This document shows, in pieces, positions 1 to 10,357 of a stretch of 32,000 nt of DNA. The stretch comes from Pseudoalteromonas translucida KMM 520 (GTDB lineage Bacteria > Pseudomonadota > Gammaproteobacteria > Enterobacterales > Alteromonadaceae). Below the pieces are notes generated by a model that was not told the DNA's origin, ran no database searches, and saw only the letters and a program-made list of their open reading frames with translations. Position numbers and translations under genes: made by a program. Position 1 is the first letter of the stretch; the number at the start of each line of letters is the position of its first letter. The stretch is taken from NCBI RefSeq assembly GCF_001465295.1, contig NZ_CP011034.1:1350001-1382000 (forward strand), read 5' to 3'.

Positions 1-13
1 CGACGATCCGGTA

Positions 14-529
14 ATGACCTACACGCCGAAAGAGCTTGTAAACACTATAAAAACGCGTGCCATGATGGCCGATATGATGGAACGCCCTGAGTATTGGGAC
101 AAAATGGGCGCAGAGGTCGCCGCAAACTTTGGCCGTGGCACGAAAGCAAGCGCCGGCAAAGGTGGAGATAATGGGTATCAAAAGCAACTCAACTCGATAC
201 AAGATGAAATGACTAAAGCGCTCGCTAAAATCGAAGGCGGATCAGACCTGGACTACCTTGATGATGGTGGTAGAGAGGAAGCTAAAAACAGAGTTAAGAA
301 GCTTTATCAAGAGCGTATAGAGCAGCTACAGCAGTCTTACGGTACATCATCTAGCAGCAAGCCTACAAATTCTAATCAGACAAATGAATCTGTTAAATAC
401 ATTAGTAAAATAGATGGCGTTGATGCCAAGGGCGTTATCTCCAAATTCATGGAAGCGAACAAAAATTTATCAGAACAGCAAGCTACACAAATAGCCATTC
501 AGCAAGGGTATTTATCAAATGACCAATAA
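14..529 (+). CDS. Hypothetical protein of the acquired segment (171 aa; may extend 5' beyond the window)
   Basis: Open frame with ATG at 14; the frame is also open from position 2, so the true start may lie upstream of the window. Its stop overlaps the start of the giant ORF (ATGACCAATAA, 519-529), a typical translational-coupling arrangement. No recognisable motifs. Confidence 0.6.
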   Translation: MTYTPKELVNTIKTRAMMADMMERPEYWDKMGAEVAANFGRGTKASAGKGGDNGYQKQLNSIQDEMTKALAKIEGGSDLDYLDDGGREEAKNRVKKLYQERIEQLQQSYGTSSSSKPTNSNQTNESVKYISKIDGVDAKGVISKFMEANKNLSEQQATQIAIQQGYLSNDQ

Positions 530-3500
530 AATAGTAGATCCATTTACAAATAAAGAAATTGAGTTTGTTGATCCCTTTGCTGAGCCAGAAACTAAAAGTG
601 GGATGGCGGCAGCATTTGGAGCGGGAGTTGATAAAGTTGAAGAGCTAGGTTACCGCGCAGTAAAGGGCTTTACTGACACAGGCGAAAACCCAGATGATCA
701 CGAAGAGGGCTCGTTTTCTCAGTCGGTGGCAAAGGCAATTGGCAAAGGTGGCTCAGTTTCTAAATGGGCGCAAGAAGGCATCGATCGCAATGTTAAAGAG
801 CAGGAGGCATACGAGCCAACCGTTAAATCATATAAAGATATTGATGGGTTTGGTGACGCAGCCAGCTATACCGGCGAATTGCTGGCTGGCTCGCTACCCT
901 ACATGGCAGGCGCTGCTACTGGAATAGGCGCGCTTGGTATGGCTGGCGGTTTATCGCATGAGGCTTATGAAAAGCAGCCAGAAGGCGAAAAAGACGCGGC
1001 AAGAGCTGTTACATCGGGTGCCGCTCAAATGCTACTTGAGCGTTTAGGTATCAAGGTAAGCATGGGCCAACTTGGCAAAGATATTTTAAAAGATGGTGTG
1101 GTAGAAACCGCTAAGCGCATGGGCAAGGGAGAGCTTGTAGATGCTGTACGCGATCCAAGTTTTGCTAAGCGCATATTCAAAGGCGCTGTAGGCGAAGGCT
1201 TAACCGAGACAGGTCAAGAGGCACTAGCGCAATGGGGCGCAGGTAAAAGCATTGATGAATTTGAAGGGCTAGACGAAGCATTTGTAGGTGGTTTTGCGGT
1301 CGGTGGCGTAATGCGTACTGGCTCAGAGTCAGCGCAAAAGGTAATGGGATACCAGAAAAAAACAGCCGAAGCGGTAAAGCAAGGTGTAGATCAACTTGTT
1401 GAGGCAGGCGCAAGCCACGGTGAGGCAATTGATACTGTACGTAAACAGCAATATGACGCCGCTAAAAAGCAGGGGCTAAGTGAAGCAGAGGCGTCCGCAG
1501 TTGTTGCGCGCACCATGAAAGAAAAATTTGGCATTGACGATCCTTTGTTTGCAGCAGCAGCGGAGCCAGTGGCGGTGGAGTCGGTAGAAGCGGGCATGGA
1601 GCCAACCATACCCGAAGATACGCAAACACCTATTTTTCAAAATGATGAAGTGGATTTCGATGCGCCAACAGCAGCTAGACAGGCGGGATTTGATCAAACA
1701 AATAAAGCGGCCGGCCAATATGGGGATATGCTTACAAGCCCTGCGCAACAGTCATTAAGCGCTTTAGATGCAGGCAACAATGCGCCCACAGTAGACGAGC
1801 GAGTAAAGGCGGCGGCCTTTGATAAATCACCAACACCAGAAGATCGTTTTAGCCCAATAAAGTACCAGCATGAAGGCGATTTATTGGGGCCAGAGGCGCA
1901 AGACGCGCAAAGCATAGACAATGCCCCTATTGATGGGCAAACAGTGCCAGAACAAGGTAAGTTACCAACGGCAGAGCAAACACAAAGCCGGCAAATGCGT
2001 GAGCAAGCCCAAGTAGATCTTGAATCGCAGCCTAAAAGCATTGAGCAAAAAGATATTATTTTTGGTGAAGATGGCAGGCCGCAGCAGCGTGCAGCACAGC
2101 AGGTAAAGCAAGCTGGTAAAGACTCACAAAACTTATTGCCACAAAAAGATATTATTTTTGCTGACGATAATAGTGGGGTTAACGTTTCTAAAAATGGCGA
2201 GCCATTCAAAACTAAACGCGGTGCACTGCTAAGTAAAGAAGCTCGCGCAGCACGCAGAGCAGGCCAAAAAACAAAAGCAGTTAGCTTTGATAATGGTTTT
2301 GGCTGGGAGATTAAAGGCAGCGATATAAGTGCTGCACCTAATGCAGCTCCGGATATAAGTGCGGACAATACTAAAAGTACGCAACCGGCTGCCAGTTTAG
2401 CGGGCGAACCAATAGATAGTGAATGGACTGTGTTTAATCAGCAAAGCGAAACTAAAAATATTCCAAGGGCAGAAATGCCGCAAATTAAAGCGGAAAATCG
2501 CGGCGCATTGGTTAACTTTATGAAAGCGCGTGACATAAGTCATGAGCAAGACGAGGTAGCAGCAGCCTCATTAAAGCCAACGCAGCAAGAGTTTTCACCG
2601 GCCAAAGTTAAAAAGGCAATGGAGTTTGAAGGTGGTAATCGCTCTATACTTGTATCGAATGATGGCTATGTGCTCGACGGCCATCACCAGTGGTTAGCCG
2701 CCCGTGAAAAAGGTGAGCCAGTAAAAGTAACTCGCTTAAATGCGCCTATTGAGCAGTTGGTACCATTGGCCAAAGAAATGCCCAGCACTGAAACGCAGGG
2801 CGATAATAGTAAATTAATTACTGCTGATAACGATGAAACGGCCATTTCTAGTAAATTAAATACCCAGAATGATACTGAAAACGCAAAAATCAGTAAATTA
2901 AATGAAAGTGCCGAGCCTACCGCGCCGGTAACAAATGCCGCACCTAAATTAGATCGGGCAGAGGCTGAGTTGCCCGCAGTATTAAAGGTAAGCAAAACGA
3001 AATGGTTGCAGAGCCAAGCTAAAGAGCAGGGGCTAAAAAAAGGTTCGCCAGGCTTTGACGTTGCCATGGCCAAAATAGAAGAAGGTTACGAGCCAGCTAT
3101 TGATAGAGCGCTTGCTGAGTCGTCGTTTGAAACTTATAAAAAGTTTAACGACGATACGCCAGAGAGCATTAACCGCATGGCGCATAAAGAGCTGCGCAAA
3201 GAGTTTGGCATTGATGATACGCCACCGCCAATAAAAGAAGCCGTTAAGCCCGCTAAAAAAACAGAGCCGCCTAAGAGCGGTTTTTCTTTGCCTGAAAATC
3301 GGAATGTAAATGGCATGGCTGCCAATGAAATAGAAGCGATCATCAGCAAAACAAGTAACGACTTAGCCACAACAAGTAAAGAAGATTGGGGCAATTTACG
3401 CGGGCAAGGTAAGCGCGTTGGCGGCATGGTGATGGGTGGCATGCGTGATTCATCACTGCAAGGTGAAAAAGCTTACACTAACGTCATTGGTAAACTAGAG

Positions 3501-6500
3501 CAGGAAAGCAAGGCTGATTACGATGATGCAATAGCAACATTTAATGATGATAATAATGGCAAGATAGCCTATGGAAAAGCTAGAAGCGCGGGCTTTGATC
3601 ATGACACGTCACTGCGTTACGGGCTAAGCAAGGTAGCAAACATAGGAATGACTTTTGATGAGCTTTTAAATGTCGAAAGCAATAATGTCGGCGATAATGC
3701 GACACCTAAGACCAAGGGCGGCACGAATCCAGATGAAAGTAATCAAGCAACAGTCAAACAACCAGCAAGCGAGCCAGATCAGGCTAGCCCACAAGAGAGT
3801 ATTGATGACTTTGGAGAGAAGCTAGGTGGCGCGCGTAAAGATGCATGGAGCGGCTTTAGCGAAGCAATACAAGATCAGCAAAACACCGCTGAGCTACCAT
3901 TAAGCAAGGCATGGCCTGAGCCAAACTACAAAGAACTTGCAAGCACTGGTGCTAGCCTTGAGTCTATAGCGCTAATGGCTGCAATGCGCAGTGAAATACC
4001 ATCAAAACCAAGAGTTGCACGCAAGGTTGCAAGGTGGGCAAAAACAGTAAACGACTTAAAAGAATTTGCAGCAGACTTAATGAGCGGCGATCGCGATATA
4101 GCAACTGTAATGCAAAGCATGCGAAACCATAGCTCAAAGCTAGCCGCTGTTGTTGACGCCATACCCTCTATTGCAAAGGCTGATATTGATACATTAAAAA
4201 ACGTTGCAGATTACCGTATCTCTTCTGGTAGTTTTTCCGTATTTGGCGGTAAAACATATTCGCCTAGCAAGGTATTTTATTTTATAGAGCGCAATGGCCG
4301 CCCAGTTTATGACGGTGCCAGCGAAACATTAAGTGACGTACAAGCACTACTAACCAAGGTTGTCAAAGCGGAGCAGAGCGACACATCTAATGCGACAAGT
4401 GGCAAGAAAAGCAAAATTAGCGTTTACCGTGATCGATACACTAAAGATGTTTATTTGGGATGGAAAGGCGCAGGTGGCGTTTTAAAAATAAAGTCATTCG
4501 ACGATTTAGGTACCGCCAGAGAGTACCTTAAAAACAATCGCGAGGAAGTAGAGCAAACCCTACAAAAAATGAAAGAAACCCCAAGCATGCGTAAACCTGT
4601 TAATGCAGAGCGCGCGGGACCTGAGCGTTACGCAGGCAATGTAACACCAGAAACGTTTAGTGAAGCATTTGGCTTTAGAGGTGTTGAGTTTGGTAATTGG
4701 GTAGAGCAAGCTAAGCGACAAAAGGATTTAAACCAAGCATACGATGGCTTAATAGATTTAGCCGAAGCGCTCGACATACCACCAAAGGCGTTAAGCTTAA
4801 ACGGCAAACTAGGCCTTGCGTTTGGCGCGCGTGGTAAGGGCGGTAAAAACCCTGCAGCCGCACACTACGAACCAAACAGCGTTGTTATTAATCTTACCAA
4901 AAAGGCAGGCTCAGGATCTCTTGCGCATGAGTGGTGGCACGCCCTTGATAATTACTTTGGCAAGCAAAGGGCTAATACAGACTTTATTACTGAGTCGCCA
5001 TACACATTATCAACAGATGAAATTCGCCCTGAAATGGCAAGCGCTTTTAAACATGTAAGAAATGCCATTGTGCAAAGCGGGTTGCCTGAGCGCTCAAAGC
5101 AGTTAGACACTAGGCGATCTAAAGCTTATTGGGCAACGACAATAGAAATGACAGCGCGATCATTTGAAACTTACATAATAGACAAGCTAAGCCAGCAAGG
5201 TATAGAAAACGACTACCTTGCTAATGTTCTAGCTGATGATGCGTGGACAGCGGCAGAGTCACTAGGCTTTGAGTCCAGTAATTCATATCCATACCCAAAT
5301 AAAGCAGAGCAACAGGGAATAAATGCTGCATATCAAACATTGTTCGACACTATAGAAAGTGAAAACACCAGCGAAGGCATACGGTTATTCTCAAAATCTA
5401 AAAACCTTAACACTAGTAAGTCAATAAGCGCTGAGAAAGCCCAGGGTATTGCTGATGAGTTTGTTAAAAGCTTAAAAGGTGCTAACGGGATCACAGTAAG
5501 CATATTGGAGGACACCGCTACCGCAGAAAAGCTATGGCGTATGAGTTTGGACGGTGCGACAGTTAAAGGTGCTTACAGCGAAAACAGTAAAACAGTGTAT
5601 GTGATAGCCGAAAACATCGACAGTGAAAGCGACTTGAAGAAAACTTTGGCACACGAAACGATAGCTCACGGCGGCTTAGATACAGTAATTGGCGCCGATG
5701 CTAAGCAAGCATTTATTGATCGCATAAAAGCTACTAAGGGCCGCAAGGCATTTGAGAAATACTGGAAGGACGCAAACAACGACTATTGGGATGCAAGCCA
5801 GGACGTAAAAGCCGAAGAGATATTTGCCCGCTTTGTAGAAAACGAGCCCACCAAAGGCGAGCTTAAATATTGGTGGCAAGCACTTAAACGTTTTATACGT
5901 GCACAGCTTGATAAAGTAGGCCTGGCATATAGTGAAGATACAGAGCTAACCGCAATGCGCGAAATGCTTGAGAGTATAGTTAAGGGATTTAAAGCGCAGC
6001 GTGAGCCGATGACTAGCAGTCAAACTGAAATGGCTTACAGCCAATCTGATAAGAAATTCAGCCATACAACCAGCAATGGCAACAGCCAAACATCAAGCAA
6101 AATATCAGAGGCTATAAAAAAAGCAATCAACCGTGAGAGCCGCTTTGAAAAATCAAGAATGCCAGAGTGGGAGGCACTAAACGCTCAGTTAAGAGAGACA
6201 GATAAAACAACTGGCAGCAAAATAAAGCGCCAATTATCACGATGGATAATGCCTGGCGGAAACATGCCGGAAACAGTAAAACAGGCCGTTAGGGGGCGTG
6301 ATCGCGATGTGGCTGTGCATGAATTTGATATATCAATGCTGGTAGGAAAGTTAAATTCAGCAATAAAGTCTGCAAGTATCAATCCTGACAGGCTTACTGA
6401 TGATCAGTGGGCTAAATATCACCAGTTTTTAACTGGCGAAAATAATGGCTCGACACTTGGGCAAAGTGAGCGCGATGTGTTGGTGCTTATGCGGGAGCAT

Positions 6501-8816
6501 ATAGATGGCCTGACCCGCGATTATGTAGCAAGCGTAAATAATAAGCTGCAACAGCGATTGGCAGAGGATGGAGTGACCGACCCCAAAGAAGCTGCTCGCC
6601 TTGAAAAAATGCTAGGTAATGTAGGTAAATATTTAAACCGTAGTTATAAGGCCTTTGATGATAAGGAGTGGTTTAAGAAGATCCCCACGAAAGTTATTGA
6701 TGATGCCCGTACATACTTAATTAACCAGTATAAACGAGATGGACATGCAGCTGAGGAAGCTCAAAATAAAGCGCAGGTTACTTTAAATGAAATAGTAAAA
6801 ACTGGTACAGCTTACGAAAGCCTGGGCTCGTTTATTGCTGAGAGTAAACTTGGCTCTAAAGATCTTTCCACTTTAATACCGAGAAAAGATATATCGCCAG
6901 AAATTAGAGCTTTATTGGGTGAGTACGCAGACCCACGGATTAACTACGCTAAGTCAGTATCAAAAATGTCCTCTATGATCGCAAGCGACAAGTTGTTAAG
7001 TACAATACGCGATATGGGCATCAATAATTTTATTTTTGAAAAAGACACTCGGCCACCGGAGGCAACTGTTCAATTGGCGGGCGAAAAATCTGAGGTGTAT
7101 TCGCCGCTGAACGGTATGTGGACCACGCCAGAAATAAAAGAAGCATTTGAGGATGCAATGGGAACTGGTGGTGGCGAAGGGTGGCTTGATACAGCGATAC
7201 GAATTAATGGCTTTATAAAATACGGCAAAACAGTTTTATCACCCACAACGGCAATGCGTAATGTGATGTCATCTTACTTTTTCACAGTTGCAAATGGTCA
7301 CTTTAATCAAAAGTATATGAAGCAAGCCGTATCTGCTTTTAATGCGCAAGTTAAAGGTAAGGTTACTGATGGCGAGTCTGATTATATCAAACGCCTTATT
7401 AAGCTAGGTGTTTTGTATGACTCAGCAAACGCCGGTGAAATGGTCAAAATGATGACCGACGGAAAGATAAGCCAAATGCTAGAGGGCAAAGGTGGAGCTG
7501 CATTTGAAAGCTTACGATGGCTGACTGACAAGGCGACAGGCTTTTATCGCTTTGGCGATGACTTTTGGAAGATTGTCGGCTTTGAAAATGAAAAGGCAGC
7601 ACTCATAAGAACAGGCATGCCGCAAGGCGAGGCCGAATCAGTGGCCGCAGAGCGAATACAAGATACCTACCCAACATATAGCCGCGTTGGCAAAGCGGGG
7701 GTTTGGCTGTCAAGATTTCCGCTGGCTGGTACGTTTGTTTCATTTCCTGCTGAAATAGTTAGAACTACTGGCAACATGATCAAGCTTGCAGCTAGCGAAA
7801 TTAAATCAGACAACCCTAAAGTGCGCGCTATGGGAGCAAAACGAATTGTAGGTATAACTATGGCAAGTGGCGGCATGTTTGCTTTATCAGCCCTCAGCGC
7901 AGCAATGTTTGGTGTGACGGATGATGAAGAAGAAGCACTTAGGGACATGACAGCTGACTGGCAAAAAAACTCAACTTTCGTTTATGCAGGTAGGGATAGC
8001 GATGGGAATTTACGTTATTTTGATATGTCATTCTTAGACCCGTACGGATATTGGAAGCGCCCTATAGAAGCGATGATGCGAGATCAGCCAGTAGATAAAG
8101 CGATAGCATCATCATTAAGCGATATGATTTCGCCATTCTTAGGAGCCGATATAACTGCAGGGAAAATACTTGAAGTGCTTAGCAATAAAAAGCAAAGCGG
8201 TGGGCAAGTTTATAAAGAAAACGATACGGCCATTCGTAAAAGTGCAGATATTGCTGGGTACTTAGCATTAGGCCTAGCGCCAGGCGCAGTAAATAATGCT
8301 TGGCGAATTGGTATGGCGGCAGGTGATGTTAAGCGCTCGACAGGTAAGCCATATAGTTTGCCTGATGAAATGCTGGCACTAATGGGATTTCGTAGTTCAA
8401 CATTTGATCCCAAGGTTAGCCTTTATTATCGGACCTTTGACTTTAACAGCTCAATTGCAGAGGCTAGAAAAGAGCTAAGCGGTGTACTAAGAGATCCCAA
8501 TAAGGTGTCAGATGGCGAGATAAGTGCGGCTAAAGATCGAGCAAAATCAAAGCAAGAGCAGGCGTTTAAGCAAATGTCTCGCTTAATTCAGGCCGCGCAA
8601 ACTGGCGGAGCAAGTCGCCCTCAAGTTGTACGAATATTATTGTTAGCAGGTATTAGCAAGCGCAATGTTGGGTTTTTACTGCAAGGGCGAGTGCCGCCGG
8701 TTAATTTATCGGACACATCATATGAAAGCGCTGTAAAACGAGCTCAATTAATAATGGACAATGAATCAGCGAGGGAAATAAGAAGTCGATTTAACCGCAT
8801 AACTAGTAAGGATTAA
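519..8816 (+). CDS. Giant 2,765-aa multi-domain protein, polyvalent-protein-like (ParB-like module + HExxH zincin-like module + low-complexity linkers + hydrophobic segments)
   Basis: 8,298-nt uninterrupted ORF, which cannot arise by chance at this GC content. It contains LKPTQ...DGYVLDGHHQWLAA (ParB-like), FGFRGVEFGNW...LAHEWWHALDNYF (HExxH), Q/A/P-rich linkers, a glycine-rich hydrophobic N-terminal stretch (GELLAGSLPYMAGAATGIGALGMAGG) and a C-terminal TM-like stretch. The function is inferred, not demonstrated. Confidence 0.85.
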   Translation: MTNKIVDPFTNKEIEFVDPFAEPETKSGMAAAFGAGVDKVEELGYRAVKGFTDTGENPDDHEEGSFSQSVAKAIGKGGSVSKWAQEGIDRNVKEQEAYEPTVKSYKDIDGFGDAASYTGELLAGSLPYMAGAATGIGALGMAGGLSHEAYEKQPEGEKDAARAVTSGAAQMLLERLGIKVSMGQLGKDILKDGVVETAKRMGKGELVDAVRDPSFAKRIFKGAVGEGLTETGQEALAQWGAGKSIDEFEGLDEAFVGGFAVGGVMRTGSESAQKVMGYQKKTAEAVKQGVDQLVEAGASHGEAIDTVRKQQYDAAKKQGLSEAEASAVVARTMKEKFGIDDPLFAAAAEPVAVESVEAGMEPTIPEDTQTPIFQNDEVDFDAPTAARQAGFDQTNKAAGQYGDMLTSPAQQSLSALDAGNNAPTVDERVKAAAFDKSPTPEDRFSPIKYQHEGDLLGPEAQDAQSIDNAPIDGQTVPEQGKLPTAEQTQSRQMREQAQVDLESQPKSIEQKDIIFGEDGRPQQRAAQQVKQAGKDSQNLLPQKDIIFADDNSGVNVSKNGEPFKTKRGALLSKEARAARRAGQKTKAVSFDNGFGWEIKGSDISAAPNAAPDISADNTKSTQPAASLAGEPIDSEWTVFNQQSETKNIPRAEMPQIKAENRGALVNFMKARDISHEQDEVAAASLKPTQQEFSPAKVKKAMEFEGGNRSILVSNDGYVLDGHHQWLAAREKGEPVKVTRLNAPIEQLVPLAKEMPSTETQGDNSKLITADNDETAISSKLNTQNDTENAKISKLNESAEPTAPVTNAAPKLDRAEAELPAVLKVSKTKWLQSQAKEQGLKKGSPGFDVAMAKIEEGYEPAIDRALAESSFETYKKFNDDTPESINRMAHKELRKEFGIDDTPPPIKEAVKPAKKTEPPKSGFSLPENRNVNGMAANEIEAIISKTSNDLATTSKEDWGNLRGQGKRVGGMVMGGMRDSSLQGEKAYTNVIGKLEQESKADYDDAIATFNDDNNGKIAYGKARSAGFDHDTSLRYGLSKVANIGMTFDELLNVESNNVGDNATPKTKGGTNPDESNQATVKQPASEPDQASPQESIDDFGEKLGGARKDAWSGFSEAIQDQQNTAELPLSKAWPEPNYKELASTGASLESIALMAAMRSEIPSKPRVARKVARWAKTVNDLKEFAADLMSGDRDIATVMQSMRNHSSKLAAVVDAIPSIAKADIDTLKNVADYRISSGSFSVFGGKTYSPSKVFYFIERNGRPVYDGASETLSDVQALLTKVVKAEQSDTSNATSGKKSKISVYRDRYTKDVYLGWKGAGGVLKIKSFDDLGTAREYLKNNREEVEQTLQKMKETPSMRKPVNAERAGPERYAGNVTPETFSEAFGFRGVEFGNWVEQAKRQKDLNQAYDGLIDLAEALDIPPKALSLNGKLGLAFGARGKGGKNPAAAHYEPNSVVINLTKKAGSGSLAHEWWHALDNYFGKQRANTDFITESPYTLSTDEIRPEMASAFKHVRNAIVQSGLPERSKQLDTRRSKAYWATTIEMTARSFETYIIDKLSQQGIENDYLANVLADDAWTAAESLGFESSNSYPYPNKAEQQGINAAYQTLFDTIESENTSEGIRLFSKSKNLNTSKSISAEKAQGIADEFVKSLKGANGITVSILEDTATAEKLWRMSLDGATVKGAYSENSKTVYVIAENIDSESDLKKTLAHETIAHGGLDTVIGADAKQAFIDRIKATKGRKAFEKYWKDANNDYWDASQDVKAEEIFARFVENEPTKGELKYWWQALKRFIRAQLDKVGLAYSEDTELTAMREMLESIVKGFKAQREPMTSSQTEMAYSQSDKKFSHTTSNGNSQTSSKISEAIKKAINRESRFEKSRMPEWEALNAQLRETDKTTGSKIKRQLSRWIMPGGNMPETVKQAVRGRDRDVAVHEFDISMLVGKLNSAIKSASINPDRLTDDQWAKYHQFLTGENNGSTLGQSERDVLVLMREHIDGLTRDYVASVNNKLQQRLAEDGVTDPKEAARLEKMLGNVGKYLNRSYKAFDDKEWFKKIPTKVIDDARTYLINQYKRDGHAAEEAQNKAQVTLNEIVKTGTAYESLGSFIAESKLGSKDLSTLIPRKDISPEIRALLGEYADPRINYAKSVSKMSSMIASDKLLSTIRDMGINNFIFEKDTRPPEATVQLAGEKSEVYSPLNGMWTTPEIKEAFEDAMGTGGGEGWLDTAIRINGFIKYGKTVLSPTTAMRNVMSSYFFTVANGHFNQKYMKQAVSAFNAQVKGKVTDGESDYIKRLIKLGVLYDSANAGEMVKMMTDGKISQMLEGKGGAAFESLRWLTDKATGFYRFGDDFWKIVGFENEKAALIRTGMPQGEAESVAAERIQDTYPTYSRVGKAGVWLSRFPLAGTFVSFPAEIVRTTGNMIKLAASEIKSDNPKVRAMGAKRIVGITMASGGMFALSALSAAMFGVTDDEEEALRDMTADWQKNSTFVYAGRDSDGNLRYFDMSFLDPYGYWKRPIEAMMRDQPVDKAIASSLSDMISPFLGADITAGKILEVLSNKKQSGGQVYKENDTAIRKSADIAGYLALGLAPGAVNNAWRIGMAAGDVKRSTGKPYSLPDEMLALMGFRSSTFDPKVSLYYRTFDFNSSIAEARKELSGVLRDPNKVSDGEISAAKDRAKSKQEQAFKQMSRLIQAAQTGGASRPQVVRILLLAGISKRNVGFLLQGRVPPVNLSDTSYESAVKRAQLIMDNESAREIRSRFNRITSKD
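2460..2750 (+). other. ParB/sulfiredoxin-like (ParB N-terminal nuclease-like) module inside the giant ORF
   Basis: Translated segment: PRAEMPQIKAENRGALVNFMKARDISHEQDEVAAASLKPTQQEFSPAKVKKAMEFEGGNRSILVSNDGYVLDGHHQWLAAREKGEPVKVTRL. The LKPTQ motif and the hydrophobic-strand-DGHH-x3-A pattern (DGHHQ codons at 2676-2690) match my memory of ParBc/ParBc_2-type domains. Confidence 0.55.
4668..4965 (+). other. Zincin-like metallopeptidase-type module (HExxH) inside the giant ORF
   Basis: HEWWH is encoded at 4926-4940, within FGFRGVEFGNWVEQAKRQKDLNQAYDGLIDLAEALDIPPKALSLNGKLGLAFGARGKGGKNPAAAHYEPNSVVINLTKKAGSGSLAHEWWHALDNYFG. This resembles domains I recall from large polyvalent proteins of phages and conjugative elements. 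The exact family was not verified. Confidence 0.45.
7845..7916 (+). other. Predicted transmembrane or hydrophobic helix in the C-terminal third of the giant ORF
   Basis: IVGITMASGGMFALSALSAAMFGV is a 24-residue uncharged hydrophobic stretch followed by the acidic run TDDEEE. Confidence 0.5.
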
Positions 8817-8830
8817 CTTTTACAAGAGCA

Positions 8831-8856
8831 ACAAAAAGCCCGCAATTAAGCGGGCT
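8831..8856. repeat. Copy 1 of a 26-bp direct repeat, ACAAAAAGCCCGCAATTAAGCGGGCT (hairpin; terminator for the minus-strand cassette)
   Basis: Exact 26/26 match with 10117-10142. AGCCCGC / GCGGGCT forms a 7-bp stem with a 6-nt loop. The A-run on the plus strand becomes a U-run on the minus strand, so it is a good terminator for the convergent yafO-like gene. On the plus strand it is followed by ATCAGG (no T-run). Confidence 0.85.
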
Positions 8857-8865
8857 ATCAGGTAA

Positions 8866-9261
8866 TTAGTTTCTATTTCTAAAGTCATCAGCAGTTTGCT
8901 TGAGGCCACGCATATAACCATAATCTTTGCACTTTTCATGTGCGTTATTATGGATTACGGCAAATACGTAATGAGCCTCTTCATTCATATATCCATAAGT
9001 GTAGACGATATAGGAATCAGAAGTTTTATTTCTTTCCCACTTATCAGGGCAAGATACTCCTTCGATATATATATGAAGGTGGTGTACCTCAGAATCTTGA
9101 ATATTATCAGGCCGCAAAAAGGGTGCATCTTTACCTATGTAATGAGGCTTCTCTTGTGTGGTGAAATAAGTCTTAAGATCTTTTTTTAAAGGCTCTACAT
9201 CTTTGCCGAGTTTTTTTATTCCGGCTTCAAGTGATGCGCTAAACTGTAATGATACTTCCAA
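8866..9261 (-). CDS. YafO-family mRNA interferase-like toxin (131 aa, TTG start)
   Basis: The length and the pattern IGKDAPF...VHHLHI...NKTSDSYIVYTYG...AHYVFAVIHNNAHEKCKDYGYMRGLKQTADDFRNRN align by eye with E. coli YafO (FGRDA...VAHIHL...SRTNDEAHLVYCQG...AWLLIAILKPEPHKLARDNNQMHKIGKMAEAFRMRF, recalled from memory). The only in-frame start is TTG at 9261, with a weak SD. The gene begins 14 nt after the stop of the upstream ORF. Confidence 0.6.
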   Translation of the reverse strand: MEVSLQFSASLEAGIKKLGKDVEPLKKDLKTYFTTQEKPHYIGKDAPFLRPDNIQDSEVHHLHIYIEGVSCPDKWERNKTSDSYIVYTYGYMNEEAHYVFAVIHNNAHEKCKDYGYMRGLKQTADDFRNRN

Positions 9262-9275
9262 TGTAAATTTCTCAG

Positions 9276-9815
9276 TTAATGAATATTAAAAATCTCATTA
9301 CTAACTGCGTTAGCTGCTATAAAAAAATCTTCAGAAGGTGTGAAACTGCAATTTTTATTAACAGAAGTCTCTTTTAAAGAGCTTCCTAATACTCTACAAA
9401 TATTAGATATATTCTTTCTCAACTGCCCAGATTTAGAAACTAAGTCTTTAAAGTTTTGATGAACTACAGGGCCGTGTGCATTTAATATATCTTGGTTGTA
9501 AAGGCTCCAATTTCTTTTCAGGTATTCAGACACACCACGAAGAGCTAAATCTAGACTAACTAAATCATCTAAGTTTGCTAAGGTTTCTTGGTTAACGGTG
9601 TCAGAATTAGACAGATCAAAATAAACCTGACGAGCTTGAAGTAAAGTTTTATCAAGTTGTACTAATTTTTGCCCAAGCCTAATAGATATATCACTAGCAC
9701 TTATATTAGTAGCTACTGACTTGCTTGGTATTAAAAAACTAACCTCTTCCGAAGCATTAACGGAAAAAGCACTGGAAACCAAAGTTGCTAACAACATAAC
9801 AGTCCCCTTAAACAT
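9276..9815 (-). CDS. Secreted hypothetical protein (179 aa with Sec-type signal peptide)
   Basis: ATG at 9815 is preceded by AGGAG at a 7-nt spacing; the track ORF starts 8 codons earlier at 9839. The N-terminus MFKGTVMLLATLVSSAFSVNA/SEE has a signal-peptide n-h-c architecture with an AxA-like site. The rest looks helical with no recognisable motif. AT-rich. Confidence 0.6.
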   Translation of the reverse strand: MFKGTVMLLATLVSSAFSVNASEEVSFLIPSKSVATNISASDISIRLGQKLVQLDKTLLQARQVYFDLSNSDTVNQETLANLDDLVSLDLALRGVSEYLKRNWSLYNQDILNAHGPVVHQNFKDLVSKSGQLRKNISNICRVLGSSLKETSVNKNCSFTPSEDFFIAANAVSNEIFNIH

Positions 9816-10116
9816 AGCGATACTCCTAGTATAGCGCATTAAATCAAACTACTTCATTCTAACTAACAATAAAATAGTGCGCAGATTATCCATGTATTGA
9901 GATAGAAAACAAGGAAAATAGAAAAATCAGTATAAATAATTATACCTAACAGGCCTTAATAAGGGCTTAATTATGATCTATTTTAATGCCAATTCCATCA
10001 CTTACAGAAGTTACACTATACATATGAGATAGATTTATCAACAAAAGTTTGAATAGATTGTTGGCATTAGCTGTATTGGGACGCGGCACAAGCAGGCTAG
10101 CTGAAAAGCGTTACTC

Positions 10117-10142
10117 ACAAAAAGCCCGCAATTAAGCGGGCT
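10117..10142. repeat. Copy 2 of the 26-bp direct repeat (hairpin followed by TTTT)
   Basis: Identical 26-mer to copy 1, here followed by TTTT (10143-10146) and preceded by an A-run, so it is a bidirectional intrinsic-terminator shape. No plus-strand gene ends immediately upstream of it. Confidence 0.85.
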
Positions 10143-10256
10143 TTTACAGAGTATCGAGTCATCAACCTACAATTATAATATCGTGCTGTATTATGATTGC
10201 GTAATAAAGCTATAATAGGTTTGTTGTTAAGTCTACGACAAATTTACAAATTCCCC

Positions 10257-10286
10257 CTTGAAATACCCACCGACAAGCACAATATT
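10257..10286 (+). promoter_or_regulatory. Putative sigma32 (RpoH) heat-shock promoter of htpG
   Basis: CCCCCTTGAAA (-35; CTTGAAA at 10257-10263), a 14-nt spacer, then CACAATAT (6/8 to CCCCATNT), about 70 nt upstream of the htpG ATG. Confidence 0.55.
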
Positions 10287-10357
10287 TCAGTCATGGTAAG
10301 AACTTCAATTATTCACTTGTGTACCAAAGTGTGTACCAAATAATGAAAGGTAACATT

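Follow-up and report, generated by a model that had tools for sequence, protein, structure and literature searches.

The 32,000-nucleotide stretch of DNA analysed here (hereafter the window) belongs to the chromosome of Pseudoalteromonas translucida KMM 520 (contig NZ_CP011034.1, positions 1,350,001 to 1,382,000 of the forward strand) and begins with a giant gene, located at 519..8816 on the forward strand, whose product is probably a polyvalent protein of the phage type. The open reading frame (ORF) starts with ATG and, as had been noted earlier from the sequence, is uninterrupted through 2,765 codons plus stop; none of them is a cysteine codon. The 3′ end of a late gene precedes it (1..529, forward strand). 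This upstream ORF is truncated by the left edge of the window and represents the end of a phrog_601 gene that encodes 421 amino acids (aa) in relatives, window positions 1-132 aligning to positions 9474-9605 of the related sequence L005, within the 421-aa ORF. The earlier note had described the start of the giant gene as an ATGA-type overlap, but the actual overlap is 11 nucleotides (nt) long, with the ATG at 519 and the TAA of the upstream ORF at 527-529, and an identical 11-nt overlap was found in the relative L003. Mean guanine-plus-cytosine (GC) content in 1-kb windows was ∼0.449 over positions 1-9000 and ∼0.393 over positions 10001-32000, in agreement with the claim that the gene is GC-richer than the neighbouring chromosome, and an AT-rich dip (GC 0.335) was present at 9001-10000.

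Frameshifts and assembly chimerism had been named as possible flaws of such a long ORF. The metagenome scaffold L002 is co-linear with window positions 2-8801 at 77% nucleotide identity, and the protein P0099 (2,746 aa) is co-linear with the giant protein apart from one exchanged module. The ratio of nonsynonymous to synonymous substitution rates (dN/dS) relative to Pseudoalteromonas sp. APC 3691 was 0.01-0.16 in every 200-300-codon window. As L002 and P0099 are co-linear with it and dN/dS is low throughout, the giant gene is not an assembly chimera, and the substitution pattern argues strongly for purifying selection over the full length of the ORF and hence for a functional gene. Gene calling in L002 splits the giant gene into two ORFs (1,598 and 1,157 aa) because of a single in-frame TAA at ∼9968-9970, which corresponds to residue ∼1597 of the window protein and past which both the reading frame and the similarity run on. 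Fission at a domain boundary was rejected, as there is only one TAA and the similarity is uninterrupted across the site; the TAA represents a nonsense mutation or a read-through site, or else is due to a sequencing error. Near-identity DNA searches with window positions 1-10300 against phage and plasmid collections gave no match, nor did an exact-sequence look-up of the giant protein.

Domain organization of the giant protein

All motifs quoted in the earlier note were found at their places, namely DGHHQW at residue 720, DDFGEKLGGARKD at 1096, HEWWH at 1470, LAHETIAHGG at 1710 and a hydrophobic helix at 2443-2466. The core common to the giant proteins of Stx phages starts with the DDFGEKLGGARKD (DDFGEK) block (3753..4244, residues 1079-1242; this and all following modules of the gene are on the forward strand). 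The profile phrog_616 matches residues 1057-1857 (E 1.1e-133), and Stx phages match residues 1071-1820 with 33% identity by tblastn (E 1e-109; phmmer E 2e-117). The block is followed by an LPD5 domain (4245..4667, residues 1243-1383; Pfam PF18799, E 1.2e-25) and by a zincin-like metallopeptidase together with LPD1 (4668..5363, residues 1384-1615), in which HEWWHALD is located at residues 1470-1477 and LPD1 at 1529-1615 (Pfam E 4.4e-19). The Pfam profile search that had been proposed as a check recovered these two signature domains, LPD5 and LPD1, both above the gathering score. The phage-type class of polyvalent proteins was defined by Iyer, Burroughs, Anand, de Souza and Aravind (2017; PMC5512222); its metallopeptidase commonly has HExxH and, three residues further on, an Asp, with HEXXXH as a variant. 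HEWWHALD is of the former type. The NCBIfam family CLCA_X matches residues 1365-1611 (E 1.2e-41, below the family's cut-off), no metallopeptidase family of Pfam gave a match, and MPTase-PolyVal remained without a match in a tile-wise search to E 5. The region further downstream (5391..6098, residues 1625-1860) contains HETIAH at residues 1712-1717, which fits the HEXXXH variant, and the second module noted around LAHETIAHGG is accordingly listed here as a putative zincin module of the HExxxH type. In the alignment of this module (A5) no variation was seen in the E, H and E and almost none in the first H; no significant Pfam match and, by profile, no PDB match were obtained.

The C-terminal module (6195..8813, residues 1893-2765) has 87 homologues, many of them encoded as ORFs of their own (890-1,500 aa) and some preceded by an ADP-ribosyltransferase (ART) domain. 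Its AlphaFold2 (AF2) model is confident and entirely helical, with a predicted local distance difference test score (pLDDT) of 76.5 and a predicted template modelling score of 0.72. A Foldseek search of the PDB with this model yielded only nonspecific matches to helical repeats and transporters (E at least 0.2). In BFVD, 83 predicted viral structures match the fold at E<1e-3, and these are C-terminal pieces of giant phage proteins annotated LPD or LPD38, which elsewhere in their length are annotated helicase, zeta toxin, ART, RelA/SpoT, lysozyme or methylase. The module also matches phrog_22602, a 'virion structural protein'. The Pfam model of LPD38 (PF18857) does not match it, and neither HMMER with the profile of the C-terminal family nor hhalign against the single sequence of Stx gp35 revealed a link to LPD38. 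Comparison of alignment with alignment by hhalign, using 14 LPD38-bearing C-termini, gave a match over ∼800 columns (probability 97%, E 1.6e-10) with the shared motifs DDEEE..PW.KN and PYGY. Because of this match the all-alpha module appears to be a divergent 'carrier' of the LPD38 type, a remote homologue rather than a member of the Pfam family; LPD38 is listed as phage-only by Iyer et al. (PMC5512222). The hydrophobic helix (2443-2466) that had been regarded as transmembrane-like is indeed present, but it lies inside a long helix of the compact all-alpha model and membrane insertion is not evident.

A further module (2376..2798, residues 620-760) is marked by the invariant motif LKPTQ...DGHHQ (alignment A2). 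A search with residues 1-1078 among 1.84 billion representative proteins resulted in 2,469 matches, and most of the best 150 of these fall on residues 600-830, with 55-65% identity, in proteins of 2,000-5,900 aa. The AF2 model has a pLDDT of ∼79 at residues 620-629 and of 94-98 at residues 630-759. In a Foldseek search of the PDB the best 15 matches were all ParB N-domains, Noc or sulfiredoxin (Srx), with probabilities of 0.92-1.0 and, for ParB and Noc, root-mean-square deviations of 2.4-3.3 Å across ∼90 columns, while the next match had a probability of 0.04. Residues 620-760 are thus predicted to adopt the ParB/Srx alpha+beta fold. The ParB-like module of the earlier note was therefore recovered at the level of the fold and not at that of sequence families, as ParBc, ParBc_2, ddrB-ParB and all other Pfam families were without a match in the tile-wise search to E 5, no NCBIfam profile matched the domain, and a PDB sequence search with its profile found nothing. 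The ORF30 protein of Pseudoalteromonas phage vB_Pun_Y3 (hereafter Y3) matches the ddrB-ParB model at the equivalent position. Low-complexity linkers border the domain. About a dozen other proteins contain it as a fusion with Mu-like portals (PF06074); these fusions were seen in Luteolibacter and in metagenome sequences (P0283, P0291, P0292, P0297, P0300, P0309 and others). Fusion to a portal is the kind of evidence for virion delivery that was used by Iyer et al. (PMC5512222), and judged from these fusions the portal appears to be a second, independent route by which the DGHHQ domain enters virions.

The N-terminal 1,078 residues comprise, besides this domain, three regions. The conserved N-terminal module (519..1583, residues 1-355), with Gly/Ala-rich hydrophobic stretches, is common to 18 giant or partial relatives and has no Pfam match. 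The Q/A/P/D/E-rich region that follows (1584..2375, residues 356-619) has the composition ascribed to it before, but it is partly conserved (48% identity between residues 376-607 and residues 380-605 of the Y3 protein), contains KDIIF motifs and has a dN/dS of ∼0.07-0.14. The third, a rare helical region (2916..3752, residues 800-1078), is covered by only 3-22 homologues and was modelled by AF2 as helices with moderate confidence. At least half of the protein had been considered free of recognizable motifs. Large parts indeed carry no Pfam name, but they are mostly recurrent modules of the class (the N-terminal module, the DDFGEK block, the HExxxH module and the LPD38-type C-terminus) and not unique novel sequence.

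Gene context at the prophage end

The giant gene is located directly before htpG in three independent sequences, namely the window, contig 76 of APC 3691 and scaffold L002, which agrees with its proposed position at the end of an acquired segment. In APC 3691 the order upstream of the giant gene is an internal virion protein gene (phrog_511), a gene for a 1,287-aa tail fibre and five ORFs of 138, 210, 144, 78 and 421 aa, corresponding to phrog_610, 611, 596, 594 and 601, respectively. A series of 133, 217, 148, 83 and 421 aa that matches this order is present in Stx2-converting phage 86, where it is followed by a 2,783-aa 'LPD5 domain-containing protein' and then by the integrase; in phage Y3 the giant gene closes the structural module. 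These upstream virion genes were seen in relatives that share the flank, the window itself showing only the 3′ end of the phrog_601 gene. By its gene order the giant gene appears to be the last late gene, encoded among the virion genes of a prophage. The window opens within the last 8.8 kb of a lambdoid prophage of the short-tailed lineage, and the giant gene is next to the attachment site. A scan of the window for a tRNA gene as a possible attachment site found none.

A perfect direct repeat of 26 nt, ACAAAAAGCCCGCAATTAAGCGGGCT, has its first copy, a terminator-like hairpin, just 3′ of the giant gene (8831..8856) and its second copy at 10117..10142, where the conserved chromosomal sequence leading into htpG begins. 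The two copies border a 1.26-kb AT-rich cassette (8857..10116, reverse strand) comprising an ORF for a YafO-family toxin (8866-9261, reverse strand) and an unassigned ORF of 187 aa (9276-9839, reverse strand). PADLOC gave no significant match for the cassette ORFs. In APC 3691, near-identical repeats border a different cassette of 1.2 kb, whose helix-turn-helix plus ATPase-like ORF has 335-388 aa according to the start codon chosen, and in scaffold L002 a single hairpin without any cassette is present between the giant gene and htpG. The junction of the prophage with htpG looks like a slot for variable cassettes.

The remaining part of the window is ordinary gammaproteobacterial chromosome, with htpG, adk, genes for a peroxiredoxin, a response regulator, a GGDEF protein, SpoVR, a DUF444 protein and PrkA, sodB, a glutaredoxin gene, recN, an NAD kinase gene, an HrcA-like gene, grpE and a gene for a transporter of the major facilitator superfamily. 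The GTG start of the mechanically called htpG ORF lies in a tandem GTGTACCAAA-GTGTGTACCAAA repeat (10319-10340) that is conserved in relatives, and the true start of htpG is probably an ATG a few dozen bases downstream, as in L002.

Related giant proteins and exchange of modules

The giant protein is the marine counterpart of the giant virion protein of Stx phages and does not represent a new kind of system. The Stx-phage proteins (phi24B gp47, 2,811 aa; Stx2-86 gp35, 2,783 aa; phrog_616) are of the same size class, their gene has the same position as the last late gene by the attachment site, after five small ORFs of matching PHROGs, and they share the core DDFGEK-LPD5-zincin-LPD1-HExxxH with 33% identity over about 750 aa as well as a C-terminal region that is homologous at the profile level; like the giant protein they lack cysteine. 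In contrast, residues 1-1070 of the giant protein have no similarity to Stx2-86 gp35, the Stx-phage protein has MuF_C and a Pfam-recognizable LPD38, neither of which was detected by Pfam in the giant protein, and the latter differs by its ParB/Srx-fold domain and its marine Pseudoalteromonas host. The phi24B protein gp47, which carries LPD5, LPD1, LPD38 and MuF_C, was found by proteomics to be abundant in purified virions but is invisible in the cryo-electron microscopy map, and the authors of that study proposed it to be an encapsidated ejection protein acting as a conduit. Gp123 of Cellulophaga phage phi18:3, which was annotated as a structural protein from tandem mass spectrometry of virions, shares the C-terminal module (28% identity, E 8e-68), and efficient infection by coliphage PTXU04 requires its LPD38 protein gp25.

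The closest isolated phage is Y3 ('Poorviridae'), which infects the same host genus and whose ORF30 and ORF31 encode proteins of 3,421 and 1,027 aa. Identity to the giant protein is 69% over residues 1079-1851 and 82% over residues 1893-2765, whereas Y3 has a different N-terminus, with a Pfam ddrB-ParB domain in the place of the DGHHQ domain, and has in addition an ADP-ribosyltransferase and a methyltransferase. The Y3 record shows the gene as two ORFs, and a segment of ∼167 aa, equivalent to residues 1893-2059, is present twice, at the end of ORF30 and inside ORF31 (L001, 33894-34950). ORF31 is annotated as an auxiliary metabolic ADP-ribosyltransferase, yet it consists mostly of the C-terminal carrier module.

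The architecture corresponds to that of polyvalent proteins, as had been put forward in the earlier note: LPD5 and LPD1 were found by Pfam beside the zincin motif and at least seven further separable modules, and homologues have been detected in virions. In common with the phage-type class of Iyer et al. (PMC5512222), the protein has many unrelated domains around a zincin hub, LPD domains, a ParB-superfamily domain, a late-gene context and a predicted packaging and injection. It differs in that the N-terminal module, the DGHHQ domain, the HExxxH module and most of the C-terminal module are without a match to the Pfam models derived from that study. A similar pairing of domains is known from the Dar system (DarB, DdrB) of phage P1, large proteins that are packaged into the head and injected, where DdrB combines a ParB-superfamily domain with a C-terminal zincin. 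P1, however, is a myovirus with separate and smaller proteins, and the ddrB-ParB model misses the giant protein. Anti-restriction activity is reported for the Dar system in work cited in the reference list of PMC11879866.

Comparison with near-identical genes revealed an exchange of entire modules. P0099 has 81% identity to residues 1-602 and 97% to residues 1069-2765, but carries a different module in place of residues 603-1068, and the ParB-like domain and the rare helical region thus appear to form one swappable slot. P0100 is without the LPD5-zincin-LPD1 block and has MuF_C in its place. Parts of the N-terminal 1,078 residues recur in 18 giant or partial relatives, of which 13 have LPD38 at their end and seven contain InPase, while others carry LPD5/LPD1, ddrB-ParB, MuF_C, PBECR, helicase, ART or methyltransferase domains between the two ends. 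From these comparisons the giant protein appears to combine an N- and C-terminal frame that stays constant with slots for exchangeable cargo. Compared with APC 3691 (L004/L005), aa identity is 96% over residues 1069-2765 and about 73% over the N-terminal part. For the C-terminal half the synonymous divergence (dS) amounts to 0.14-0.67 and for residues 1-800 to 1.0-1.6; beyond residue 800 it is higher still (saturated). Due to this uneven dS the giant gene must be considered a recombinational mosaic.

The lack of cysteine extends to the class. No cysteine occurs in the 2,765 aa, compared with 0.98% in the neighbouring chromosomal genes (P ∼1e-12), and cysteine is also absent from Stx2-86 gp35, N4 gp50 (3,500 aa), Y3 ORF30/31 and phi18:3 gp123 as well as from 94 of 111 giant relatives. 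This avoidance may be a class-wide adaptation to unfolded translocation through the tail and to the oxidizing periplasm.

Proposed role and alternative explanations

We consider it rather probable that the giant gene encodes a polyvalent protein of the phage type and closes the late genes of a temperate, short-tailed-phage-like prophage beside htpG, and that the protein acts in the following way. It would be synthesized late and translationally coupled to the preceding virion gene, as suggested by the conserved 11-nt overlap, and would then be packed inside the capsid, as shown by mass spectrometry for the homologues phi24B gp47 and phi18:3 gp123. As a loosely folded, cysteine-free string of domains it would leave the capsid through the tail channel together with the DNA. 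The N-terminal module and the 870-aa LPD38-type C-terminus would serve as the frame for encapsidation and ejection and possibly for spanning the envelope, and the slots between the frame modules would hold exchangeable enzymatic cargo. Here, the cargo would comprise the ParB/Srx-fold domain, probably an NTP-binding enzyme or a nuclease, whereas the LPD5-zincin-LPD1 block and the HExxxH module would cut the chain itself or other targets after entry. The cargo would act within the first minutes of infection on nucleic acids or defences of the host or of rival elements. Ejection, processing, enzymatic activity and any anti-defence role of the giant protein are what we infer from its modules and its relatives.

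Several observations weigh against this interpretation. The Pfam models MPTase-PolyVal, LPD38 and ddrB-ParB fail to match the giant protein, the last of these (PF18763) giving no match to the tile of residues 560-830 at E up to 5, and the Foldseek E-values for the ParB fold are weak (0.03-0.13). Judged from the sequence, the Gln of DGHHQ appears to sit where the active-site Arg of the superfamily would be expected, with other invariant Arg at alignment positions 22, 33 and 80, and an enzymatic activity is therefore uncertain. The HExxxH module was assigned to the zincins by its motif only. The window covers only the last 8.8 kb of the element, from which the integrity of the prophage is not visible. 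Finally, the only functional data on the class concern the essential part of PTXU04 gp25 in infection, and phi24B gp47 was interpreted as a conduit; neither speaks for an anti-defence function.

The main alternative is a pure ejection or conduit protein, in which all modules would serve envelope penetration and DNA delivery and none would have an effector function; the metallopeptidases, for example, might cut peptidoglycan peptides and the helical C-terminus might form a trans-periplasmic tube. Such a role was put forward for gp47 by the phi24B authors, it accords with the LPD38-bearing PTXU04 protein being indispensable for plaque formation and with the conservation of both terminal frames, and short-tailed relatives need ejection proteins of this kind. 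We nevertheless consider it unlikely, if well worth bearing in mind, as the ParB/Srx-fold domain has no obvious envelope role, relatives bear on the same frame modules that act in the cytoplasm (ADP-ribosyltransferase, methyltransferase, RNase-type MuF_C/PBECR, helicase, pyrophosphatase), and the rapid swapping of modules in near-identical backbones better fits a conflict-driven cargo. The same gene might instead be a remnant of a decayed prophage, kept by the host for purposes of its own, such as those of a toxin, exclusion factor or tailocin-like component, and no longer delivered by an infectious phage. The small part of the element within the window and the in-frame stop in L002 would be compatible with this, and polyvalent proteins captured by host genomes were noted by Iyer et al. 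(PMC5512222). The strong purifying selection across all 2,765 codons, the full set of upstream virion genes in relatives and the version carried by the plaque-forming phage Y3 (69-82% identical over residues 1079-2765), however, make such a remnant very improbable.

Hardly any weight can be given to a polyvalent protein of a conjugative element, the second class considered in the earlier note, or to a secreted polymorphic toxin or adhesin, in spite of the large size, the multi-domain layout and the many plasmid records matched by tblastn through the LPD5/LPD1 core. Neither Pfam nor NCBIfam detected an ArdC-N, primase-type, relaxase, type IV secretion system, RHS, RTX or adhesin-repeat domain, and no signal peptide was evident in the translation, which was read without a signal-peptide predictor. 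The neighbours in relatives are genes for a tail fibre and internal virion proteins, and the C-terminus appears to be of the LPD38 type. The late-gene context thus speaks for the phage class, and signs of a conjugative or adhesin locus are lacking. Equally remote is an N4-like virion RNA polymerase (vRNAP), as suggested in the Y3 paper, which ties ORF30 to the N4 enzyme by PSI-BLAST. The N4 vRNAP, gp50, is likewise giant, cysteine-free and arranged as beads on a string; it is carried inside the capsid and leaves by a narrow tail, probably unfolding to pass the 35-Å tail channel, with its N-terminal part implicated in injection and its C-terminal part in encapsidation, and the Y3 capsid belongs to the N4 gp56 family. 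However, phmmer and profile comparisons of the whole protein, the N-terminal module and the C-terminal module with gp50 detected no sequence similarity, and the relationship was rejected on these three tests. Pfam revealed no RNA polymerase domain, a PDB sequence search with the whole giant protein gave no match at all, and any link would, according to Iyer et al., run via the zincin region and not the polymerase.

Few phage proteins are as large as the polyvalent proteins or as poorly understood, and their presence in virions (phi24B) and their requirement for infection (PTXU04) have only recently been established for members of the class. The giant gene of P. translucida offers a clear case in which the terminal frame stays constant while near-identical genes exchange their middle modules like cassettes, and it appears to tie a Pfam-invisible C-terminal module of 870 aa to the LPD38 type. 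Two recurrent, as yet unnamed modules, the DGHHQ ParB/Srx-fold domain and the HExxxH module, emerge as candidate injected enzymes. For the former we tentatively suggest, aware that this is more doubtful than the overall assignment, an undescribed clade of the ParB/sulfiredoxin superfamily that serves as a widely used injected phage enzyme. The strong conservation of the domain in otherwise fast-shuffling proteins suggests one universal and slowly evolving target, which could be a nucleotide (as in a cytidine or nucleoside triphosphate switch) or the DNA ends in the newly infected cell, and the activity could be a new one in anti-defence or takeover. The analysis also brings out the class-wide lack of cysteine, and cysteine avoidance could serve as a sequence signature that predicts virion-ejected proteins, including those of the N4 vRNAP type.

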